Of a DNA stretch of 64,000 nucleotides, positions 2,601-64,000 are shown piece by piece; the stretch's first letter is position 1; each line of letters opens with the position of its first letter. The DNA is from an uncultured virus (IMG/VR IMGVR_UViG_3300033144_005150) (lineage: Duplodnaviria > Heunggongvirae > Uroviricota > Caudoviricetes). The position numbers and the translations under genes were made by a program. The notes below the pieces were generated by a model. The model worked only from the letters and a program-made list of their open reading frames with translations, was not told the DNA's origin and ran no database searches. Location: the IMG/VR virus record IMGVR_UViG_3300033144_005150. The stretch is one strand, 5' to 3'.

Positions 2601-2756
2601 CTAGAGGATGCCAAGCAGGTGGCGGGCGTCTCCGAGAAACGAGCGGGTGCCGCGGGGGACAGGCTTGCCGTACTCATCGGTGACGGTCTGGCACGCGGTG
2701 GCCATGACGAAAAGGGCGGGAAGGAGGACGACGAGGGCGGTGAGTAGGTTGGTCAT
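2601..2756 (-). CDS. 51-aa protein with hydrophobic N-terminus and Cys (lipoprotein-like)
   Basis: MTNLLTALVVLLPALFVMATACQTV...; below ORF-track cutoff; follows sigma54-like site at 2781. Confidence 0.6.
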   Translation of the reverse strand: MTNLLTALVVLLPALFVMATACQTVTDEYGKPVPRGTRSFLGDARHLLGIL

Positions 2757-2780
2757 TCTGTCTCTCTGCCCTACTAATGA

Positions 2781-2796
2781 TGCACGGTGCGTGCCA
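2781..2796 (-). promoter_or_regulatory. sigma54-type promoter
   Basis: minus strand TGGCACG-CACC-GTGCA, with GG and GC 12 apart. Confidence 0.7.
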
Positions 2797-2847
2797 AAGT
2801 ATCACACGAGTGCCATACCCAACTTAGGTAGCGTGCACCGGTTTGCC

Positions 2848-3005
2848 TATGACACGCGTGTCATACTTATTCCGAATACGACGTTTTATGGTATGACACA
2901 CGTGTCATACCCAGACGCCTCCCGGAGCCCGTTCCGAGATTCCCCAATGATATTACACAGTTGTGATAGGTCCTCAGACCCTCCAACTATGACACGCGTG
3001 TCATA
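2848..3005. repeat. four-palindrome module, copy 1
   Basis: TAT(G/C/T)AC-N6-GT(C/G)ATA at 2848, 2892, 2951, 2988. Confidence 0.9.
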
Positions 3006-3145
3006 CCCGCCAGGCGCCGCACGAGCCTCCACGCCACGAGCTATCGGCCCGCCAAACATGACCAGCGGGGCCTCGAGCCCTCACACGAGCTCACACGGGA
3101 GCCTCTGACACGAGGCCAGGGCTCCTAGGAATTCGCCCGCGACCG

Positions 3146-3514
3146 TTAGGCCGAGGGGCTCCGGTTCCCCGGCAGGGTGGGGGCTCCCGGGTGGTAGGGG
3201 TCGGGCCGGCGGGGTTGCGCCGATCGAGCGCGGGCAGCATCCCGGGCCGTCTCCAGACGGGCCAGCACGGTCGCCAGCATCTCGTCGCCTGTGGGGTACT
3301 CCACACCCACGACCAGCTTGCGGCAGTGCCACGAGGCCGCCAGGGGGTCGAGGCCCATCTCAGACGCCACGCGCTTGGCCTCGCGGGTGTTGTTGCCTCG
3401 CAGCCCTTGCAACCGATCCCACAGGTCAGCCAGACCGGCGCGCTGGCTCGCAGCCGACCGGCTCATGAAACCAACGTAGGAGGAAACGACGCTCGGGATA
3501 CGACTCATGCTCAT
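3146..3514 (-). CDS. hypothetical protein
   Basis: 122 aa; ATG 13 nt from sigma54-like site. Confidence 0.65.
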   Translation of the reverse strand: MSMSRIPSVVSSYVGFMSRSAASQRAGLADLWDRLQGLRGNNTREAKRVASEMGLDPLAASWHCRKLVVGVEYPTGDEMLATVLARLETARDAARARSAQPRRPDPYHPGAPTLPGNRSPSA

Positions 3515-3520
3515 GCCCTC

Positions 3521-3721
3521 TTAGGATGCACACTCCGTGCCATTTTCACGATCCCGTTCAAAGTTCACGGCCAATTGTAGGGCCGTCGCTCCCCGGAACC
3601 CGAAGCCGGTCAGACCCTCCCCGCACCATTGCAGCGCAAAGCCGGTCAAGCCCACGAGACCCACAAGGGCCGTCGCCACACAGGCCAGGGCCAGGACGCC
3701 GGCCCTACGCATTGGGGCCAC
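3521..3721 (-). CDS. small membrane protein
   Basis: hydrophobic segment; follows 3705-3965 in an apparent operon. Confidence 0.5.
   Translation of the reverse strand: MAPMRRAGVLALACVATALVGLVGLTGFALQWCGEGLTGFGFRGATALQLAVNFERDRENGTECAS
3527..3542 (-). promoter_or_regulatory. sigma54-type promoter
   Basis: TGGCACG-GAGT-GTGCA. Confidence 0.75.
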
Positions 3722-3965
3722 CTCGCAGCACGAGCCTTGCTTCGTTGCCGCTTAGGTCATAGTGGACCGGGGGAGTGTCGGCACCCTCCGGGGTCTCGAC
3801 CATATCAGCCAGCACAGACGCCAGGACCGTCTCAGGCTGGACCGGGACCGTGGGGCCGCTAAGGGTCGCAGCCAACACCGCAACAGTCACACCGGACAGG
3901 CCCAACATGCGGGACGTGTGCAGGAGGTTCAGGACGCGGGATCGAAGGGTCGGAGTCTTGCTCAT
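3705..3965 (-). CDS. small membrane protein
   Basis: MSKTPTLRSR...LGLSGVTVAVLAATL. Confidence 0.55.
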   Translation of the reverse strand: MSKTPTLRSRVLNLLHTSRMLGLSGVTVAVLAATLSGPTVPVQPETVLASVLADMVETPEGADTPPVHYDLSGNEARLVLRGGPNA

Positions 3966-26111: not shown

Positions 26112-26630
26112 GTGGCATGCAAGCACGAGCTTGACAGCCTAGGGCGCCCCACCCAGAGTGAGGGGCACAGTGAAGGAACCTGGAGCACGGCCACAGCGGC
26201 CCTGCGAAGGTTCTTCGCAAACATTTGGCCACTCCCCTTTGGAGGGGACCTGAGCGTAAGCACCTCGGGAACAAGCGGGTTCGAGACCCGTAGTGGCTGC
26301 CAGTCTCTTGAGACTGCGACTTCAAGTACGCACTACTGCATTCTGAGGAAAGACCTCCCTCTTGGGGTTCTTGCTGCGCAGCGGATCCATGCTGCGGGTG
26401 AGAGCGCTCCCAAGGGTGGTGTCTCTTCCGGCACGTACGCCGTGGCATTGGCCGCCAAGAGCGAGGAACACCTCGCTTTCTTGGAAGACAACCTGCGGCG
26501 TCTTTCTATTCCTCATGTCGCGATCCGTGAACCGGACCGTGGCGATGAGCTCATGGCCATTGGCATTCGGCCTGTGGCTGACCGTAACCAACTCAAGAAA
26601 GTGACGAGCAGCCTTCCGCTGCTCAAATGA
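26112..26630 (+). CDS. Pth2-like peptidyl-tRNA hydrolase (start uncertain; domain begins about 26330)
   Basis: YCILRKDL..G..AAQ..HA...IREPD...AIGI.P...LPLLK. Confidence 0.7.
   Translation: MACKHELDSLGRPTQSEGHSEGTWSTATAALRRFFANIWPLPFGGDLSVSTSGTSGFETRSGCQSLETATSSTHYCILRKDLPLGVLAAQRIHAAGESAPKGGVSSGTYAVALAAKSEEHLAFLEDNLRRLSIPHVAIREPDRGDELMAIGIRPVADRNQLKKVTSSLPLLK
26227..26302 (+). ncRNA. tRNA-like element inside the 5' part of the Pth2-like ORF
   Basis: GGCCACT/AGTGGCT-G-CCA; T arm GCGGG-TTCGAGA-CCCGT; non-canonical D and anticodon arms. Confidence 0.55.
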
Positions 26631-36972: not shown

Positions 36973-37089
36973 ATGAACGTCGCAAGCAACATTCTCGGGT
37001 CGAGCCTCCCCCAACCACTCTGTGGTCTGGTGCTGCTCCCCGTGCGTCTGCGCCGGCTCCCGCGATTGCCCGGTGTCCTCCGAACGTAA
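36973..37089 (+). CDS. leader peptide rich in Leu/Pro/Arg
   Basis: MNVASNILGSSLPQPLCGLVLLPVRLRRLPRLPGVLRT; 10 Leu, 5 Pro, 5 Arg. Confidence 0.65.
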   Translation: MNVASNILGSSLPQPLCGLVLLPVRLRRLPRLPGVLRT

Positions 37090-37871: not shown

Positions 37872-38405
37872 GTGTCCGACCAAAAGTTCTGCAACGCCTG
37901 TCGGAAGACTAAACCCACCAAGGAATTTTCGCACAGACCCGTCAATGGCAAGAAGTACTTACGATCAGCATGTCGCAAGTGTGAGAACAAGAAGAGATAC
38001 GCAAGGAGAAAACAATCCGGCACAACCTACGCAGACCCCCAGCGGCGTTACTCGGCCAAAGTTACAGAGATGAGGCGCAGCGGAGAAGATGTTCCTCGGT
38101 GGATCCTCCAGGACTCCAAGGGAACCGATCGAAAGTCTGGTCGCAAGAACGACCTTACTAAGGAATACATCACGGAGCAGATTGCCAAAGGGTGCTCCTA
38201 CTGTGGGGAAACCAAAATTCGCATGACTCTGGATCGGATCGACAATGACAAAGGACATACGCAAGACAACACCGTTCCGGCCTGCATCCGCTGCAACTAC
38301 ATTCGTAGAAGCATGCCTTACGAAGCGTGGCTTTGTTTGAAACCAGGACTACGGCGCGCAAAGAAACAAAATCTCTTCGGGGATTGGGTAGGTCGAGCAA
38401 GATAA
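37872..38405 (+). CDS. HNH/His-Me homing-type endonuclease within tRNA cluster
   Basis: CNAC...CRKC...CSYCG...LDRIDND.GH...N.VPAC..CN. Confidence 0.8.
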
Positions 38406-38983: not shown

Positions 38984-39324
38984 CTGAGTAGGCAAGACGA
39001 TCGCGGTGGGGCTTGCCCCATCGAGGAAAGTCCGGGCTCCAAAGAGCAGGGTGCTTGGGAAATCCAAGACGGAGTGATCCGCTGGCAAGTGCAGCAGAGA
39101 GAAGACCGCCGATGGCCTTCGGGCACAGGTAAGGGTGAAAGGGTGGTGTAAGAGACCACCGGACCGCTGGTGACAGTCGGTTGCAGGTAAACCCCACTCG
39201 GAGCAAGACGAACAGAGGCGTTACGGGCTGCTCGCCCAGTCTCAGGTAGTTGCACAGATGAATGATCGTTGCCTGGTGAGGGAGACCGACCCAGGAACAG
39301 AACCCGGCTTAACAGCCTACTCAG
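38984..39324 (+). ncRNA. rnpB: RNase P RNA, bacterial type A
   Basis: GAGGAAAGTCCGGGCTCC, GGGTGAAAGGGTGGTGTAAGAGACCACC, GGTAAACCCC..GGAGCAAG, ACAGAACCCGGCTTA; P1 CTGAGTAGGC/GCCTACTCAG. Confidence 0.95.
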
Positions 39325-39337
39325 GAGATGTGTTTTT

Positions 39338-41271: not shown

Positions 41272-41334
41272 ATGAACGCGACGTATCGAACTTATTCTTG
41301 GCTCCGCGGGTCGTGCGGGTTGATTGAGGGCTAA
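41272..41334 (+). CDS. leader peptide with two Tyr codons
   Basis: AAGGAG RBS; MNATYRTYSWLRGSCGLIEG. Confidence 0.6.
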   Translation: MNATYRTYSWLRGSCGLIEG

Positions 41335-43054: not shown

Positions 43055-44215
<1,161 letters not shown>

Positions 44216-47188: not shown

Positions 47189-48583
47189 TCAGTCGCCCAG
47201 GAGGGCTTCGTAGGCTTCTTGCTCGGCCTTGGCCATGGCACGGCCCATCTCAGCCCCGGGCTCCATGCCACGGTCGATCAGGTCCTTGCCGGTCAACGCC
47301 GGTGGGGACTCTGCGAAGTTCACGAACGCTTTGACCTCATCGATGGCGGGTTTGCCCAGAGCCCGAGCAGCCCCCATGATGTCCGACGCACCGATGTCGG
47401 CTTTCTCCATCGACTGAAGTTTCTGGTAGACCGCCTTGAGCTTGAGAGCTTCGGCGGGGCTGAGGTCCCGCATCTTGAGCAGGAACAGGACCTTTTGAAT
47501 CTCCGCGTCCGAGTACTTCATCTTGCGCATGACCTTCCCGATCTTTTTCTGTTTGTTGTCGCGCAGGAGACTCACCATCTGGAGGATGGGATCGGGAGTG
47601 TCCAGGTAGGTTTTGCCGACCGTGAGACCAGGGAACATCTGGTCGAACAGGCCCAGCTCCTCCAGCATCTTGAGGTAATGCTTTGGGTCCTTGGCCGATG
47701 CGATGCCACGAACGAACTCGTCCCGAATACGCTCGGGAGAGACTTCGTTTAGATCAGGATCGTCTTTGATGGCCTTGGAGGTCTCGGCATCGATCTCAGC
47801 GCCCAGGCGCCCCGCGAATCGGACGACACGCAGGACTCGGAGCTTGTCTTCGCGGAACCGGTCCTTGGGACGGCCCACGGTTTTGATGACGCCTTCTTTG
47901 GCATCCTTGATGCCGCCGACGTAGTCCACGATTTCTTTCGTGTCCAAGTCGTAGAACAAAGCGTTGATGGTCAGGTCGCGGCGAGCCACGTCCTCGTCGA
48001 TGGTCGTGAACCTCACCTCATCGGGACGACGGCCTTCACCCACGTCTTCGCGGAAGGTGGCGATCTCGTACTCTTCGCCCTCTTGGTCTTTGACCAGGAC
48101 GACACCGAAGGCTTCACCCGCCGTCTCCTTCTGTACGCGGAGTCGTTTGTCTTTGGAGAGCAGTTCGATGACTTTTTCGGGATGGGCCTCGGTCGCTAGA
48201 TCGAAATCCTTGGGCTTCTTGCCCAGGACATGATCTCGCACAGCGCCGCCAACCAGGTAGAGCTCGTGGCCGGCGTCCTTGAGGAGCTGGTGGATGATGT
48301 TGGCGCCTTCGGGCACCGGGATCTTGGCCTTCACCCGAATCGGAGTTCGACGTGTGCCCTTGGCTGCTTGTGCTTTGAGGGCCTGACGCCAACGCCGGTA
48401 TTCGTGGAAAAGCTGAGCTCGGAACCGGTCGTCGGTCTTCATCAACGTGAAGACTCCGACCTTCGGGTACTTATCCCGAGAGTCCAAGTTGGTGTTTGGA
48501 ACCTTGGCGCGGCCTCCGTCCTTCCCGAACTTGTGTTCGAGGAACTTGAGCCAGAGTTCTGGCATGTTCTTTGTGGAAGGCAT
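47189..48583 (-). CDS. cca: class II CCA-adding enzyme / poly(A) polymerase with N-terminal extension
   Basis: LYLVGGAVRD..KDFDLAT, EIATFR, DVARRDLTINAL, RFREDKLRVLR, VSPERI. Confidence 0.9.
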   Translation of the reverse strand: MPSTKNMPELWLKFLEHKFGKDGGRAKVPNTNLDSRDKYPKVGVFTLMKTDDRFRAQLFHEYRRWRQALKAQAAKGTRRTPIRVKAKIPVPEGANIIHQLLKDAGHELYLVGGAVRDHVLGKKPKDFDLATEAHPEKVIELLSKDKRLRVQKETAGEAFGVVLVKDQEGEEYEIATFREDVGEGRRPDEVRFTTIDEDVARRDLTINALFYDLDTKEIVDYVGGIKDAKEGVIKTVGRPKDRFREDKLRVLRVVRFAGRLGAEIDAETSKAIKDDPDLNEVSPERIRDEFVRGIASAKDPKHYLKMLEELGLFDQMFPGLTVGKTYLDTPDPILQMVSLLRDNKQKKIGKVMRKMKYSDAEIQKVLFLLKMRDLSPAEALKLKAVYQKLQSMEKADIGASDIMGAARALGKPAIDEVKAFVNFAESPPALTGKDLIDRGMEPGAEMGRAMAKAEQEAYEALLGD

Positions 48584-49218: not shown

Positions 49219-49291
49219 CTCGATGGAACTCTACCGGGCATACGACACGCGATTGCATCCCTCCTTATCTTAGGAGCGAGGAAGCACTCGT

Positions 49292-56499: not shown

Positions 56500-56704
56500 T
56501 TTTTCGTGCTCCTCCTAGATCCGCGACGACGCTGATATGGGCTGCCTTTCGACCGCCCTCATCTGAGTCCAAAGGTTGCTGTTGGCCGCGTTCTTTGGCT
56601 CGCTCCAGGCTCTCGAGAATCTCGTCGTACGCCTGATCGTCCGCACCCTCTTTGTAGAGGAGCAACGTCAGGTGTAGTCCGAGAGTCTCGATCGCCCTCT
56701 TCAT
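56492..56704 (-). CDS. small hypothetical protein
   Basis: TAATG overlap with PARP gene stop. Confidence 0.55.
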   Translation of the reverse strand: MKRAIETLGLHLTLLLYKEGADDQAYDEILESLERAKERGQQQPLDSDEGGRKAAHISVVADLGGARKNG

Positions 56705-58368
56705 TACCGCCCCACCCGTGCTTCGATGACGTAGCGGATGAACTGCTGTTTGGGATCGAAGATGACGTGCTCGTCGTTGCCGAGGCTCATGCTGTTGCGA
56801 CGACCGGTGGCAGCGAAGACGGAGTCCGTGCCTCGTGGGCACGTTGTCGTGGTCCACATGGTGTCTGTGGCCATGTGGGCTTTGCCCATGGTCAGGTCGC
56901 ACAGGAACATGAAGAACCCGCGCGACTTGATGCCACCGCCGCCACCGTAGTAGCCGCCTCCTGTGTAGCCGTGCGACTTTTTAATGTCGGTCGCAAAGTA
57001 GATGCCGTGGCCGAAGGCAGCGCCCGTGATGTGGACGCCCTTGAGGCTCTTGGGGAGCCGGAGGTCGGATGACAGGATCGGCTGGACGTTGACGGCACGA
57101 GTGCCGTGGATGCCGATGCAGATGTTGGCGTCTCCGTACCAGTCCGCCATGTCCTGGATGTCGATGCGTTCCTTGGGTTGGTGGCCGGCACGGTTGTGCT
57201 TCGTTCCCTTGCGACTCTTGGCGATGGTCTTCGCGCGGTCCATGAACGCCTTGCGCTTGGCTACGTCCTCGACCGCGAACATATTGAGGACCTTGAACCC
57301 ACCACGGAGGTTGCCGTGACGGTTGTTGGTCATGCCCAGGTAGGTCGCCTCGACGTACTGGCCGAGTTCGGACTTGGGGTCGATCCAGGTGATGTTGCGA
57401 CCCAGGACCTTGTTGGGGTCCACTTGGTTGTCTTCCTGGATCTCGGCCTCGAAGTCCTCGTTGAGCAACGCAGCCTCGAACGCATCGAGGTCCTGCTGCA
57501 CAAGGAGGATGTTGTTTGAACTCAGGATGACCGCGGACGCATCACCGGTTCGAGGGATGGGGCGCGGGACGATTGTGGCGACGAAGGTGGACAGGTCTTG
57601 CAGCTTCTTGTTCTTGAGCTGCTTGGCCAGAAGTTTGTCGGGGTCCGGGTCCGTGCCGATCTTTGCGAGGATTCCGAGCGCGTCGGGGATCAACTCGTCA
57701 CGCACCTTGGCGATCGAATCCATCGTCGGCGTAACACCGGACTTCGCAGCAGCGGCACGAGCGTAGTCGACCGTACCTCCGACGAGCGACTTGGCGAGAG
57801 CGATGACCTGCGGCTGTGCGTCGATCTTCTTCTTGGACTTGGTCTTCTTCTTGGCCGCCTTCTTTTTGGTGCCCTTCTTGGCAACCCCGGAGTCGTCCTT
57901 GATCCCGTAGGCGTCGGGAAGTCCACGCTCACGAGTGGCGAGTTTCTGGACAACATAGCCCGACTTGCCTTTCTTGCCGACCCAGATTTCGCTGCTCCCG
58001 ATCTTCTTCTTCTCGATGACCTTGATGTTCTTCGTGCGACACTGCTTCTCGAAGAACGCACGAGCGTCAGCTTCACCGTTGCACTGCACGAACTGATAAT
58101 CCTGGCTCTGAAAACCCTGGTCCCAGGATTTTCCTCCCACGATGCGTCCCCATTCGAGGTACACGAACCATGATCCATCCGCGTTGACGACCCCCGCGTG
58201 GTAGTACTTGTTCTTGTTGTCGGACCCGAGTTGATCGATGCAGACCATGTCGGCAATGCCGACATCGGGTCCGAAATCATCTTGATCAACGGCGGGGCGA
58301 CCTTGGTACTTGAAGTCGTCCGCACTGAAATTAGAAGGGAACTCTTTCCTGCCGAGTTTCGTTGCCAT
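56704..58368 (-). CDS. WGR-domain PARP-like ADP-ribosyltransferase
   Basis: N-terminal NKYY...EWGRI; HGTR, FGHGIYFA..KSHGY, DEHVIF (H-Y-E triad). Confidence 0.88.
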   Translation of the reverse strand: MATKLGRKEFPSNFSADDFKYQGRPAVDQDDFGPDVGIADMVCIDQLGSDNKNKYYHAGVVNADGSWFVYLEWGRIVGGKSWDQGFQSQDYQFVQCNGEADARAFFEKQCRTKNIKVIEKKKIGSSEIWVGKKGKSGYVVQKLATRERGLPDAYGIKDDSGVAKKGTKKKAAKKKTKSKKKIDAQPQVIALAKSLVGGTVDYARAAAAKSGVTPTMDSIAKVRDELIPDALGILAKIGTDPDPDKLLAKQLKNKKLQDLSTFVATIVPRPIPRTGDASAVILSSNNILLVQQDLDAFEAALLNEDFEAEIQEDNQVDPNKVLGRNITWIDPKSELGQYVEATYLGMTNNRHGNLRGGFKVLNMFAVEDVAKRKAFMDRAKTIAKSRKGTKHNRAGHQPKERIDIQDMADWYGDANICIGIHGTRAVNVQPILSSDLRLPKSLKGVHITGAAFGHGIYFATDIKKSHGYTGGGYYGGGGGIKSRGFFMFLCDLTMGKAHMATDTMWTTTTCPRGTDSVFAATGRRNSMSLGNDEHVIFDPKQQFIRYVIEARVGR

Positions 58369-58810: not shown

Positions 58811-58839
58811 TTGACGCCAAGGTCTGAGGCGACTAGAAC
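58811..58839 (+). promoter_or_regulatory. sigma70-type promoter of Glu/Asn tRNA operon
   Basis: TTGACG-N17-TAGAAC. Confidence 0.65.
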
Positions 58840-58869
58840 GGAATTCCACTTCTGAAGTGGAACAGAACC

Positions 58870-58962
58870 ATGGCACTCCTGCTCAATACTTACCCCGTGC
58901 GGCCCGCTCTCGTTGAACGAGAGTGTGAGGGTGAACCATGCCTGCGCGGGGCAAATAGCTAA
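58870..58962 (+). CDS. leader peptide with clustered Glu and two Asn codons
   Basis: MALLLNTYPVRPALVERECEGEPCLRGANS. Confidence 0.6.
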   Translation: MALLLNTYPVRPALVERECEGEPCLRGANS

Positions 58963-59026
58963 GCAGTTCGAGAGCCAAAAGCCAACGAACGACAGCTACC
59001 CCGCGCAGGAAGGTTCATCCCCTCTT

Positions 59027-59103
59027 GCCGGAGTGGTCTAGCGGCTTAGGATGTCCGACTTTCACTCGGAAGATCGCGGGTTCGAATCCCGTCTCCGGTA
59101 CCA
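59027..59103 (+). tRNA. tRNA-Glu(TTC)
   Basis: TCCGA-CTTTCAC-TCGGA; CCA. Confidence 0.95.
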
Positions 59104-59106
59104 CCT

Positions 59107-59183
59107 GTCCCGTTCGTCTAGTTGGCCTAGGATCTTCGCCTCTCACGCGGAAGACACCGGTTCGAATCCGGTACGGTACACCA
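59107..59183 (+). tRNA. tRNA-Glu(CTC)
   Basis: TTCGC-CTCTCAC-GCGGA; CCA. Confidence 0.9.
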
Positions 59184-59186
59184 CAT

Positions 59187-59258
59187 GCTCCATTCGTATA
59201 GTGGTTAATACCGCGGGTTCTCAGTCCGCAAACCGGAGTTCAATTCTCCGATGGAGCA
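59187..59258 (+). tRNA. tRNA-Glu(CTC)
   Basis: GCGGG-TTCTCAG-TCCGC. Confidence 0.9.
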
Positions 59259-59348
59259 CTAAGTGTCGAGGTCGAGGACAGTGGCCGCTGTCATCTCGTG
59301 AAGCATCCTAACCCGATCGGGGTGACCTAAAAGATCGGAACTTTTCAA

Positions 59349-59424
59349 GGGTCGGTAGCTCAGTGGTCAGAGCGGCTGTTTGTTAGTCAGCGGGTCGTGA
59401 GTTCAACTCTCACCCGGCCCTCCA
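59349..59424 (+). tRNA. tRNA-Asn(GTT), divergent
   Basis: loop TTGTTAG; CCA. Confidence 0.8.
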
Positions 59425-59432
59425 AATTTCAT

Positions 59433-59507
59433 TCCGAAATGGTGTCAGCGGTAACACGGCGCACTGTTAATGCGCAATCGGGGGTTCGAATCCCTCTTTC
59501 GGAGCCA
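59433..59507 (+). tRNA. tRNA-Asn(GTT)
   Basis: GCGCA-CTGTTAA-TGCGC; G73-CCA. Confidence 0.92.
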
Positions 59508-59632
59508 TTTTTGAAGAAGCGCAGTGGGAGGACTCGAACCTCCCGGAAGCCCAACCTTACGGAACAGCAACCCCTCCGTCGGCCTGCGCCTGTCCATCGT
59601 ACCCGTTGGTGCGTCTATAGGCGCCCCTTCAT

Positions 59633-61961: not shown

Positions 61962-62426
61962 TTAGGCGGCCCTCCGCTTGGGGGCAGCCTTTTTGCGAGC
62001 GGTGGTGGTTTTCTTGGGTGCCGCCTTCTTGCGAGCGGTCGTTTTCTTCGCGGCTTTCTTCGCGGTCGTCTTCTTGGGGGCTGCCTTCTTGGGGGCTGCC
62101 TTCTTGGGGGCTGCCTTCTTGCGAGACGTGGTTTTCTTGGCTGCCTTCTTCGCCGTCTTTTTCGGCGCAGCCTTCTTGCGAGCCGTCGTCTTCTTGGCGG
62201 ATTTTTTCGCCTTGGGCTTCGCGGTTGCTTTCTTCTTCGGTGTGGTCTTGGCCACCTTGGTCTTGTTCACCTTCTTGCGGGCCGTGGTCTTCTTCGCCGT
62301 CTTCTTGGCCTTGGGCTTGGCTTTCGCTTTTGCCTTCGTGCTCGAAGAGATCTTCTTGACGCGAGGGGTGGTGGCCTTCTTGGCCTTGGATTTCGCCTTC
62401 GCTTTGGTCTTTGTAGCTGTCGTCAT
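61962..62426 (-). CDS. histone H1-like (Hc2/AlgP-type) basic protein
   Basis: KKAAPKK and KKTTARKK repeats; GGAG RBS; terminator-like hairpin at about 61899-61935. Confidence 0.85.
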   Translation of the reverse strand: MTTATKTKAKAKSKAKKATTPRVKKISSSTKAKAKAKPKAKKTAKKTTARKKVNKTKVAKTTPKKKATAKPKAKKSAKKTTARKKAAPKKTAKKAAKKTTSRKKAAPKKAAPKKAAPKKTTAKKAAKKTTARKKAAPKKTTTARKKAAPKRRAA

Positions 62427-63780: not shown

Positions 63781-63927
63781 ATGACCAACGTCCAGAACAT
63801 CAACTGTCGAGTCTTCCAGTCCGTCGCCGCAGATCCTTCTGCAGCCGCCGCGGCAGGATCGTGCTCCGGTTCGTGCTCAGGATGGCGAGGTATGGAGCCC
63901 AGTAGTTACGTCTCCAGACGTGTCTAG
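63781..63927 (+). CDS. leader peptide rich in Ala/Ser/Gly/Cys
   Basis: GAGG RBS; MTNVQNINCRVFQSVAADPSAAAAAGSCSGSCSGWRGMEPSSYVSRRV. Confidence 0.55.
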   Translation: MTNVQNINCRVFQSVAADPSAAAAAGSCSGSCSGWRGMEPSSYVSRRV

Positions 63928-64000
63928 TCCCCTTCGGGTGTACTAGACAACCCCGGAGGGCTCTACGCCCCCGAGGCCGACTGGAGAGGCAAGAGACTTC

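Follow-up and report, generated by a model that had tools for sequence, protein, structure and literature searches.

The stretch of DNA analyzed here (the window) is the first 64 kb (64,000 nucleotides) of a 141,909-base virus record, IMG/VR IMGVR_UViG_3300033144_005150, which is estimated to be 27% complete. It contains 36 tRNA genes, which are grouped into clusters by amino acid. Related records span 141–619 kb, so the record is most likely a megaphage fragment. One cluster, at 59027–59507, comprises three tRNA-Glu genes (TTC, CTC, and CTC) and two tRNA-Asn genes (GTT) and lies 3′ of a short upstream ORF (uORF). A first-pass annotation of the sequence had described this uORF as a leader peptide with a Glu cluster and two AAT codons, and the frame, codons, and tRNA genes were all present when their positions were checked. 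The features of the locus are as follows.

58811–58839, + strand: candidate sigma-70-like promoter (TTGAC at 58811, TAGAAC at 58834–58839) from a loosened pattern scan
58844–58862, + strand: small 5′ hairpin before the start codon (predicted fold)
58870–58962, + strand: leader uORF, 30 codons followed by TAA
58885–58887, + strand: Asn6 (AAT), candidate Asn control codon, invariant in 19/19 leaders
58893–58902, + strand: region 1, predicted partner of region 2 in the absence of a ribosome (−34.4 kcal/mol including an inner hairpin at 58906–58924)
58915–58935, + strand: Glu block, codons 16–22, with Glu conserved in homologues
58941–58951, + strand: region 2, the 5′ arm of the core helix, codons 25–28 (predicted pairing)
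58999–59009, + strand: region 3, with two predicted partners: region 2, or region 4 together with the first tRNA's 5′ strand
59012–59037, + strand: region 4, spanning a pyrimidine tract and the initial 11 nt of tRNA-Glu(TTC), the 3′ arm of the predicted off hairpin
59027–59103, + strand: tRNA-Glu(TTC), the first gene, with an unusual GG at +4/+5 that is complementary to region 3
59107–59183 and 59187–59259, + strand: two tRNA-Glu(CTC) genes
59349–59424 and 59433–59507, + strand: two tRNA-Asn(GTT) genes

The Glu codons of the uORF (GAA, GAG, GAG, and GAA) are codons 16, 18, 20, and 22 (positions 58915, 58921, 58927, and 58933), and AAT occupies codons 6 and 29 (58885 and 58954). A strict promoter scan found no promoter ahead of the uORF; the two boxes of the candidate promoter are also present 5′ of homologous leaders and of the sister leaders described below. 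The small 5′ hairpin is missing from many homologues, which are nearly leaderless. Only tRNA genes are found 3′ of the leader, with no amino acid biosynthesis or synthetase genes, and the spacer between the uORF and the tRNAs is A/C-rich. In the surrounding DNA, a PARP-like gene lies on the opposite strand upstream of the leader (56704–58368), a Lys/Ala-rich histone-H1-like frame lies downstream of the operon (61962–62426), and a weak tRNA-Ser-like sequence just past the Asn genes (minus strand, 59516–59600; called at 59518–59602) was detected at a relaxed threshold only. Contigs of two sequencing runs overlap parts of the stretch and are uninformative on expression.

The region from 58835 to 59030 folds with a predicted free energy of −82.6 kcal/mol (z = −6.21), and none of 200 shuffled sequences folded equally well. 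The long hairpin proposed in the first-pass annotation is therefore real, but it starts at the third Glu codon and not at the beginning of the Glu cluster: it pairs 58927–58960 with 58994–59024 and ends 3 nt ahead of the first tRNA. Two competing helices had been missed, one pairing 58893–58902 with 58941–58951 and the other 58995–59013 with 59020–59037. The predicted off hairpin, in which region 3 pairs with region 4, has an energy of about −21 kcal/mol, and no U-tailed intrinsic terminator was found after it on this strand. On the folding model, the long hairpin is best read as a permissive, antiterminator-like state and not as a terminator. The annotation had also held that the Glu and Asn codons give independent support for attenuation. 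Compared with 21,024 phage codons, the content of the window leader alone is within chance for Glu (4/29, p = 0.18), for Asn (2/29, p = 0.21), and for both jointly (6/29, p = 0.08). Codons 18, 20, and 22 are base-paired in the predicted helices and are therefore subject to structural constraint; codon 16 alone is mostly in a loop. Because the bias is weak in this leader alone and three of its four Glu codons are paired, the independence argument is insufficient. The attenuation-like reading itself is supported by the homologues.

Homologous leaders were collected by pattern searches. A 19-base pattern from codons 22–28 gave 25 metagenome matches, 20 of which were homologous leaders; the five excluded matches were unrelated frames without a tRNA. 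Nineteen of the 20 have a tRNA-Glu behind them, and in one the sequence ends within the first tRNA. With a helix-only pattern, 70 viral matches were obtained, five ahead of Glu/Asn tRNAs and 65 without tRNAs that were excluded, and in another viral pattern set five of six matches were excluded for lack of tRNAs. After removal of seven duplicates from 26 leader loci, 19 distinct leaders remained, including that of the window. All 19 precede Glu tRNAs and retain the reading frame, Asn6, and an E-R-E-x-E-x-E block, which was the conservation check that the annotation had proposed. They are 28–32 codons long, and their internal indels are only −3 or +6 nt. Glu is present at codons 16, 18, 20, and 22 in 18, 19, 18, and 19 of the 19 leaders, respectively, although in most rows the search pattern dictated codons 22–27, codon 22 among them, so that their conservation is no evidence. 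Codon 6 is AAT in 19/19 leaders, and AAT is the rarer Asn codon in the phage (81 versus 533 AAC). Codons 19 and 29 are free to vary, and codon 28 alternates between GAA and GAG (7 and 8 of 19).

Nucleotide conservation among the leaders is very high, synonymous sites included. The core helix is near-invariant in the viral set and region 2 was fixed by both search patterns; for this reason, the viral alignment yields no covariation in the core helix. With regard to a possible nascent-chain arrest peptide, the L-R-G of the leader peptide is also conserved but coincides with the core helix, and locus L227 has the helix in a different frame. Among 46 hand-picked leaders, Glu accounts for 13.6% ahead of Glu tRNAs versus 1.5% ahead of others, and Asn for 8.7% versus 2.1%. 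Asn at codon 6 also occurs in 5/32 leaders without Glu tRNAs, where it is always AAC. No match to the leader was found among cultured phages, and the exact N-terminal leader pattern had no match in genome contigs. Neighbor-protein searches returned no loci with the PARP-like protein and two with a 359-amino-acid protein, one of which has tRNAs.

A cellular counterpart was found in the Nannocystaceae. The small protein of the window's PTH2 operon has five cellular relatives, all labeled Nannocystaceae, Enhygromyxa, or Nannocystis. In one such genome, from which 20 regions were fetched, seven tRNA loci are of accessory type (clusters or genes), lie scattered, and show leader-like features. A clear codon-matched ORF is present at six of the seven (Arg/Leu, Thr/Val/Ile, Ser/Gly/Ala/Trp/Cys, Pro/Tyr, Asn/Glu, and Gln), and the contigs that carry these six measure 7.0 and 2.2 Mb. 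Searching 61 Nannocystaceae genomes at the DNA level, with matches mostly via tRNA genes, gave 30 loci; 16 are Glu/Asn-type clusters, 14 with a full leader, one with a partial leader, and one with none visible. Ten cellular leaders keep the phage core helix, one of them (L232) with a change on both sides. The 14 full leaders (418 codons) contain 57 Glu and 38 Asn codons versus 32 and 12 expected from phage codon usage, and their other two frames contain 15 and 17 Glu and 20 and 0 Asn. Codon 6 is AAT in 9/14. Where a tRNA-Asn lies inside a Thr or Lys cluster, the leader of that cluster has Asn codons (L226 and L228). At 19 loci made up of housekeeping-type Gln-Glu and Lys-Glu clusters or single genes, no ORF exceeded a score of 0.7; the score separates poorly, because true Glu leaders scored 0.4–2.4. 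Across the phylum, the core-helix pattern matched 8/401 genomes, none beside a tRNA and at about the rate of a reversed control, so the Glu/Asn leader looks narrow in range. From the shared protein and leader links, we infer that the phage host is Nannocystaceae-like.

Ribosome positions were modeled by masking everything up to 12 bases past the A site and folding the remainder, a calculation that disregards tRNA tertiary structure and kinetics; 18 leaders were folded, and L052 was excluded because its start is cut off. Mutually exclusive helices chosen by ribosome position were predicted in 18/18 leaders at the Glu block and in 16/18 at the stop codon. With the ribosome at the first Glu position, the 2:3 helix had a probability of at least 0.99 and the first-tRNA acceptor stem at least 0.87 in all 18; with the ribosome at the stop codon, region 3 folded with the pyrimidine tract and the first tRNA bases, and in those 16 the acceptor stem was at most 0.08. 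A ribosome at Asn6 left the 2:3 helix in 17/18 and an acceptor stem of at least 0.8 in 12/18, and in the model an A site anywhere in codons 2–21 leaves the 2:3 helix in place. A stall at Glu22 was intermediate (2:3 approximately 0.55). A stall at Asn29 mimics the off state in the model, although 17/19 leaders retain an Asn within the last two codons; the late Asn codon may be structural. Pairing of regions 1 and 2 was dominant in the free state in 6/18 homologues and not in the window.

The capture of the first tRNA was compared with shuffled controls. Mean acceptor-stem values (n = 19) were 0.11 with the real arm, 0.52 with shuffled arms, and 0.98 for the tRNA alone, and for 11/19 real arms no more than one of 25 shuffles did as well. 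The GG at +4/+5 of the first Glu tRNA is present in 18/18 viral and 9/10 cellular cases; elsewhere, it is found in 0/26 and 4/24 later Glu tRNAs, 0/9 Glu tRNAs of Asn-first clusters, and 0/21 housekeeping-type Glu tRNAs. Capture of the first tRNA as a general output was rejected: among 46 hand-picked other leaders it occurred in the predicted direction in six and in reverse in four, and among nine cellular Glu-first leaders four switch, three misfold the tRNA in both states, one is reversed, and one shows no switch. A helix of at least 6 pairs across the stop-codon footprint was seen in 43/52 leaders, counted without a shuffled control, and a switched U-tailed hairpin in 7/52.

The Glu/Asn leader is accompanied in the window by sister leaders ahead of other tRNA clusters.

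36973–37089, + strand: Pro/Arg/Leu sister leader, with 19/37 codons read by the tRNAs behind it
41272–41334, + strand: Tyr sister leader, with two Tyr codons ahead of two tRNA-Tyr genes
49223–49273, + strand: Leu(UUR) sister uORF, with one TTG and one TTA before tRNA-Leu(CAA) and tRNA-Leu(TAA)
63781–63927, + strand: sister leader rich in Ala/Ser/Gly/Cys/Trp/Arg codons before the Arg/Ser/Gly/Ala/Trp/Cys cluster

The last of these clusters begins at 63967 and extends past the window end. The frame and codons of the Leu(UUR) uORF are identical in two related records, G001 and G006. Beyond the window, at 67226–67291 of the same genome (G000), a Trp/Cys sister leader consists of a 21-codon uORF with two Trp codons and one Cys codon, followed by a GC hairpin with a U-tract just 5′ of tRNA-Trp/Cys/Trp; this arrangement is conserved in G001 and is the most classical member of the leader set. 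Its fold switched with ribosome position in G001 and not in G000. A frame after these tRNAs resembles tryptophanyl-tRNA synthetase by eye. A 619-kb relative adds leaders for Gln (four Gln in nine codons), Lys, Thr/Asp/Val, and His, and also has a cluster of CAT- and CCT-anticodon tRNAs whose leader contains one ATA and three AGG codons. The matches between leader and cluster extend to single rare codons (TTA, TTG, AGG, and ATA). Within one leader type, the codons track the cluster: Thr/Val/Asp in phages, Thr/Met/Asn/Phe in L226, and Lys/Asn in L228.

An initial promoter-based rule for picking leaders was discarded, as it took false promoters and overlooked the window's own leader, and a promoter-free test was substituted in which the best ORF within 220 bases upstream of each cluster was taken and the clusters were permuted; clusters without a matching ORF were retained in the counts. 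The permutation counts were 2/720 for G000, 0/300,000 for G001 (the fullest record), 2/300,000 for G004, 1/5,040 for G006, and 1/6 for G007, in a test devised after the sequences had been seen, in which CAT anticodons were assumed to read ATA and the five phage records are non-independent because they share homologous leaders. An unrelated tRNA-rich phage, G003, which was found with a tRNA-Glu pattern, has mixed tRNA arrays without matching leaders and was used as a control; it gave 52/120. In each of the five phage records, the top match of the Glu/Asn leader is another cluster, and its own comes second.

Other features of these genomes also concern tRNA. The phage has a kit for tRNA maturation and delivery, with RNase P RNA inside the Pro/Arg/Leu cluster (38985–39327), EF-Tu (43058–44215), and a CCA-adding enzyme (47192–48583); it also encodes a PTH2-like hydrolase. 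A five-codon uORF ending in TGA (26117–26134), behind a promoter, heads an operon that contains the PTH2-like gene along with two tRNAs whose anticodon loops are enlarged (27048 and 27264); it is conserved in G001, has a shorter form in Nannocystis loci L164 and L165, and may sense termination or recycling faults. The His leader of G001 and the Ile leader of G004 (loci L037 and L149) have no stop before the first tRNA, and their frames continue into that gene. In G004, structured units with tRNA-like halves are also repeated ahead of odd tRNAs (L149, approximately 2740–3900). Between tRNA genes of the Pro/Arg cluster, a frame at 37872–38402 is HNH endonuclease-like by eye, and in G001 a comparable insertion may occupy the place of the leader ahead of the Ile/Met cluster.

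Sequence comparison indicates that the uORF is a genuine regulatory leader that is conserved and belongs to a codon-matched set common to megaphages and Nannocystaceae. We propose, with a probability of roughly 0.55, that it is a ribosome-sensed attenuator that tunes the Glu/Asn tRNA operon to the supply of those tRNAs by ending transcription without Rho. In this mechanism, the frame of 30 codons would be translated by a host ribosome. With charged tRNA-Glu in short supply (or tRNA-Asn, at codon 6), the ribosome would stall before reaching region 2, allowing the long 2:3 hairpin to form, the first tRNA to fold, and the cluster to be read through. With ample supply, a ribosome at the last codons or the stop would cover region 2, leaving region 3 free to pair with the first tRNA's 5′ strand and the pyrimidine tract; this off hairpin would most likely stop transcription just inside the first tRNA gene, independently of Rho. 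The Glu/Asn unit would belong to a wider set of tRNA clusters whose leaders are enriched in their cognate codons. The sensing logic appears to be well supported by the comparison of leaders, and the output step is a prediction of the folding model. Overall, a codon-specific, ribosome-dependent switch is quite probable, with termination as the somewhat favored main output of such a switch. The wider proposal is evenly balanced: that Rho-less Nannocystaceae and their megaphages run a genome-wide, codon-by-codon feedback on tRNA supply, in which each accessory cluster is gated by a ribosome test track of its own codons and, within the Glu/Asn unit, the tRNA gene forms half of the attenuator hairpin.

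The output step is where the main rival differs. RNase P needs an acceptor stem, and the off hairpin is predicted to destroy that of the first tRNA; the same codon-sensing switch might therefore act post-transcriptionally, with capture of the 5′ strand blocking RNase P cleavage and the precursor decaying without termination. Blocked processing would fit the lack of a U-tract after the off hairpin, the RNase P RNA and CCA-adding enzyme encoded by the phage itself, and the sister frames that enter the first tRNA (His in G001 and Ile in G004). However, it would control only the first tRNA unless decay were polar, yet the leader has GAG and Asn codons for the later tRNAs, and the sister Trp/Cys leader has a classical terminator; we consider it rather unlikely. 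As codons for the later tRNAs are part of the leader, regulation likely applies to the whole cluster, which favors transcription ending at the hairpin, possibly with assistance from NusA or NusG. Rho-dependent attenuation, in which a stalled ribosome or the 2:3 helix would conceal a Rho loading site in the C-rich spacer, would explain an A/C-rich spacer without an intrinsic terminator, and the available extracts of PMC1262725 propose the same idea for terminator-less actinobacterial leaders. Against this, Rho was found in 0/61 Nannocystaceae genomes, where homologous leaders lie on chromosome-sized contigs and NusG was found in 4/5, and in 0/5 phage records versus 42/81 genomes of the class, a possible family-wide loss in these large-genome myxobacteria. 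With the probable host family apparently lacking Rho, the possible outputs are narrowed and this explanation becomes very improbable.

Two further explanations question the sensing of Glu and Asn. The leader could be a generic sensor of translation stress, with any stall before codon 22 (by antibiotic, damaged ribosomes, or cleaved host tRNAs) inducing the cluster and the codon match being minor. Every A-site position in codons 2–21 leaves the 2:3 helix in the model, Glu and Asn together make up just 6/29 codons, and cyanobacterial tRNA arrays answer translational stress generally according to the extracts of PMC8421152. This reading leaves aside the cluster-by-cluster matching to rare isoacceptors and the shift of codon content with tRNA content, which require selection on codon identity, and it is improbable as the main function, although generic induction could coexist as a side effect. 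Alternatively, the leader could be a purely structural 5′ leader or processing stalk whose frame and codons are by-products of RNA pairing, as the high conservation at synonymous sites, the pairing of three of four Glu codons, and the weak bias in this leader alone might suggest. A by-product would not be expected to keep start, stop, and frame or to retain Glu in cellular leaders despite differing surrounding sequence; the Glu enrichment is also frame-specific, and other clusters show other amino acids. A structural role alone is very improbable. The preferred reading remains termination by a ribosome-sensed attenuator.

The usual view is that promoters and growth rate determine the tRNA levels of bacteria in bulk. 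If the proposed attenuator operates as predicted, there would be isoacceptor-specific feedback on tRNA genes, and a phage with a set of such leaders could detect and replace exactly the tRNAs lost to starvation or to host anticodon nucleases. The leaders predict which shortage induces which cluster, so the old question of what large phages carry tRNAs for, and when these are used, becomes testable, and the homologues on chromosome-sized Nannocystaceae contigs are a cellular system for such tests.

Several known systems share parts of this design. T-box riboswitches sense tRNA charging in a 5′ leader, and the NT-box, which controls tRNA-Asn genes and reads Asn and Glu tRNAs, couples the same two amino acids ahead of tRNA genes; unlike the leader described here, a T-box binds the tRNA directly, without translation. 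The available portion of PMC4574755 names this dual-specificity element in Clostridium acetobutylicum. T-box identity was rejected for the window, which had no Rfam T-box match up to E = 10. A T-box-like GGGTGAACC was also dismissed: it lacks UGGN and varies as synonymous Gly codons, with codon 21 being GGT, GGG, GGC, or GCT. The Anabaena trn operon (L-array), under the repressor TrcR, is similarly an accessory tRNA set beside a housekeeping one that is induced when translation is impaired (PMC8421152; see also PMC10272220). It is one long mixed array with a DNA-binding repressor, whereas the clusters here are sorted by amino acid and have putative RNA-level sensors; the words “leader” and “attenuat” do not occur in the available text of PMC8421152.

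Closer parallels are leader-peptide attenuators. Terminator-less actinobacterial leaders, such as the cys leaders and the LEU element (PMC1262725) and polycysteine leaderless ORFs (10.1101/834739), resemble the present leader in having a near-leaderless uORF, cognate codons, and no U-tailed terminator. They precede protein genes and can use the ribosome binding site or Rho as output, whereas the first gene here is untranslated and the likely host family has no detected Rho. The extracts of PMC1262725 also describe trp, trpS, and leuS leader-peptide attenuators in actinobacteria and report that mutations in candidate control codons of the Streptomyces ilvB leader were without effect. One large leader-gene survey covered only regions ahead of protein-coding genes, according to the portion of PMC4833913 available, and no leader peptides before tRNA genes appeared in the titles and abstract openings searched, a set mostly outside subscription papers and without supplements.

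The best-known members of this class are the classical attenuators of E. coli: trpL, hisL, pheL, thrL, ilvL, and pheM before pheST. The Glu/Asn leader shares with them a short uORF, control codons upstream of a helix that overlaps the 3′ end of the uORF, predicted mutually exclusive 1:2, 2:3, and 3:4 helices, and putative multivalent sensing. It differs in that tRNA genes, not an enzyme operon, would be regulated and the codons match isoacceptors, in that the predicted 3:4 helix uses the 5′ strand of the first tRNA and has no U-tract, and in that the system is phage-borne, with one leader per tRNA cluster genome-wide. Such control is known for enzyme genes, and the system described here would be a variant of leader-peptide attenuation aimed at tRNA genes.
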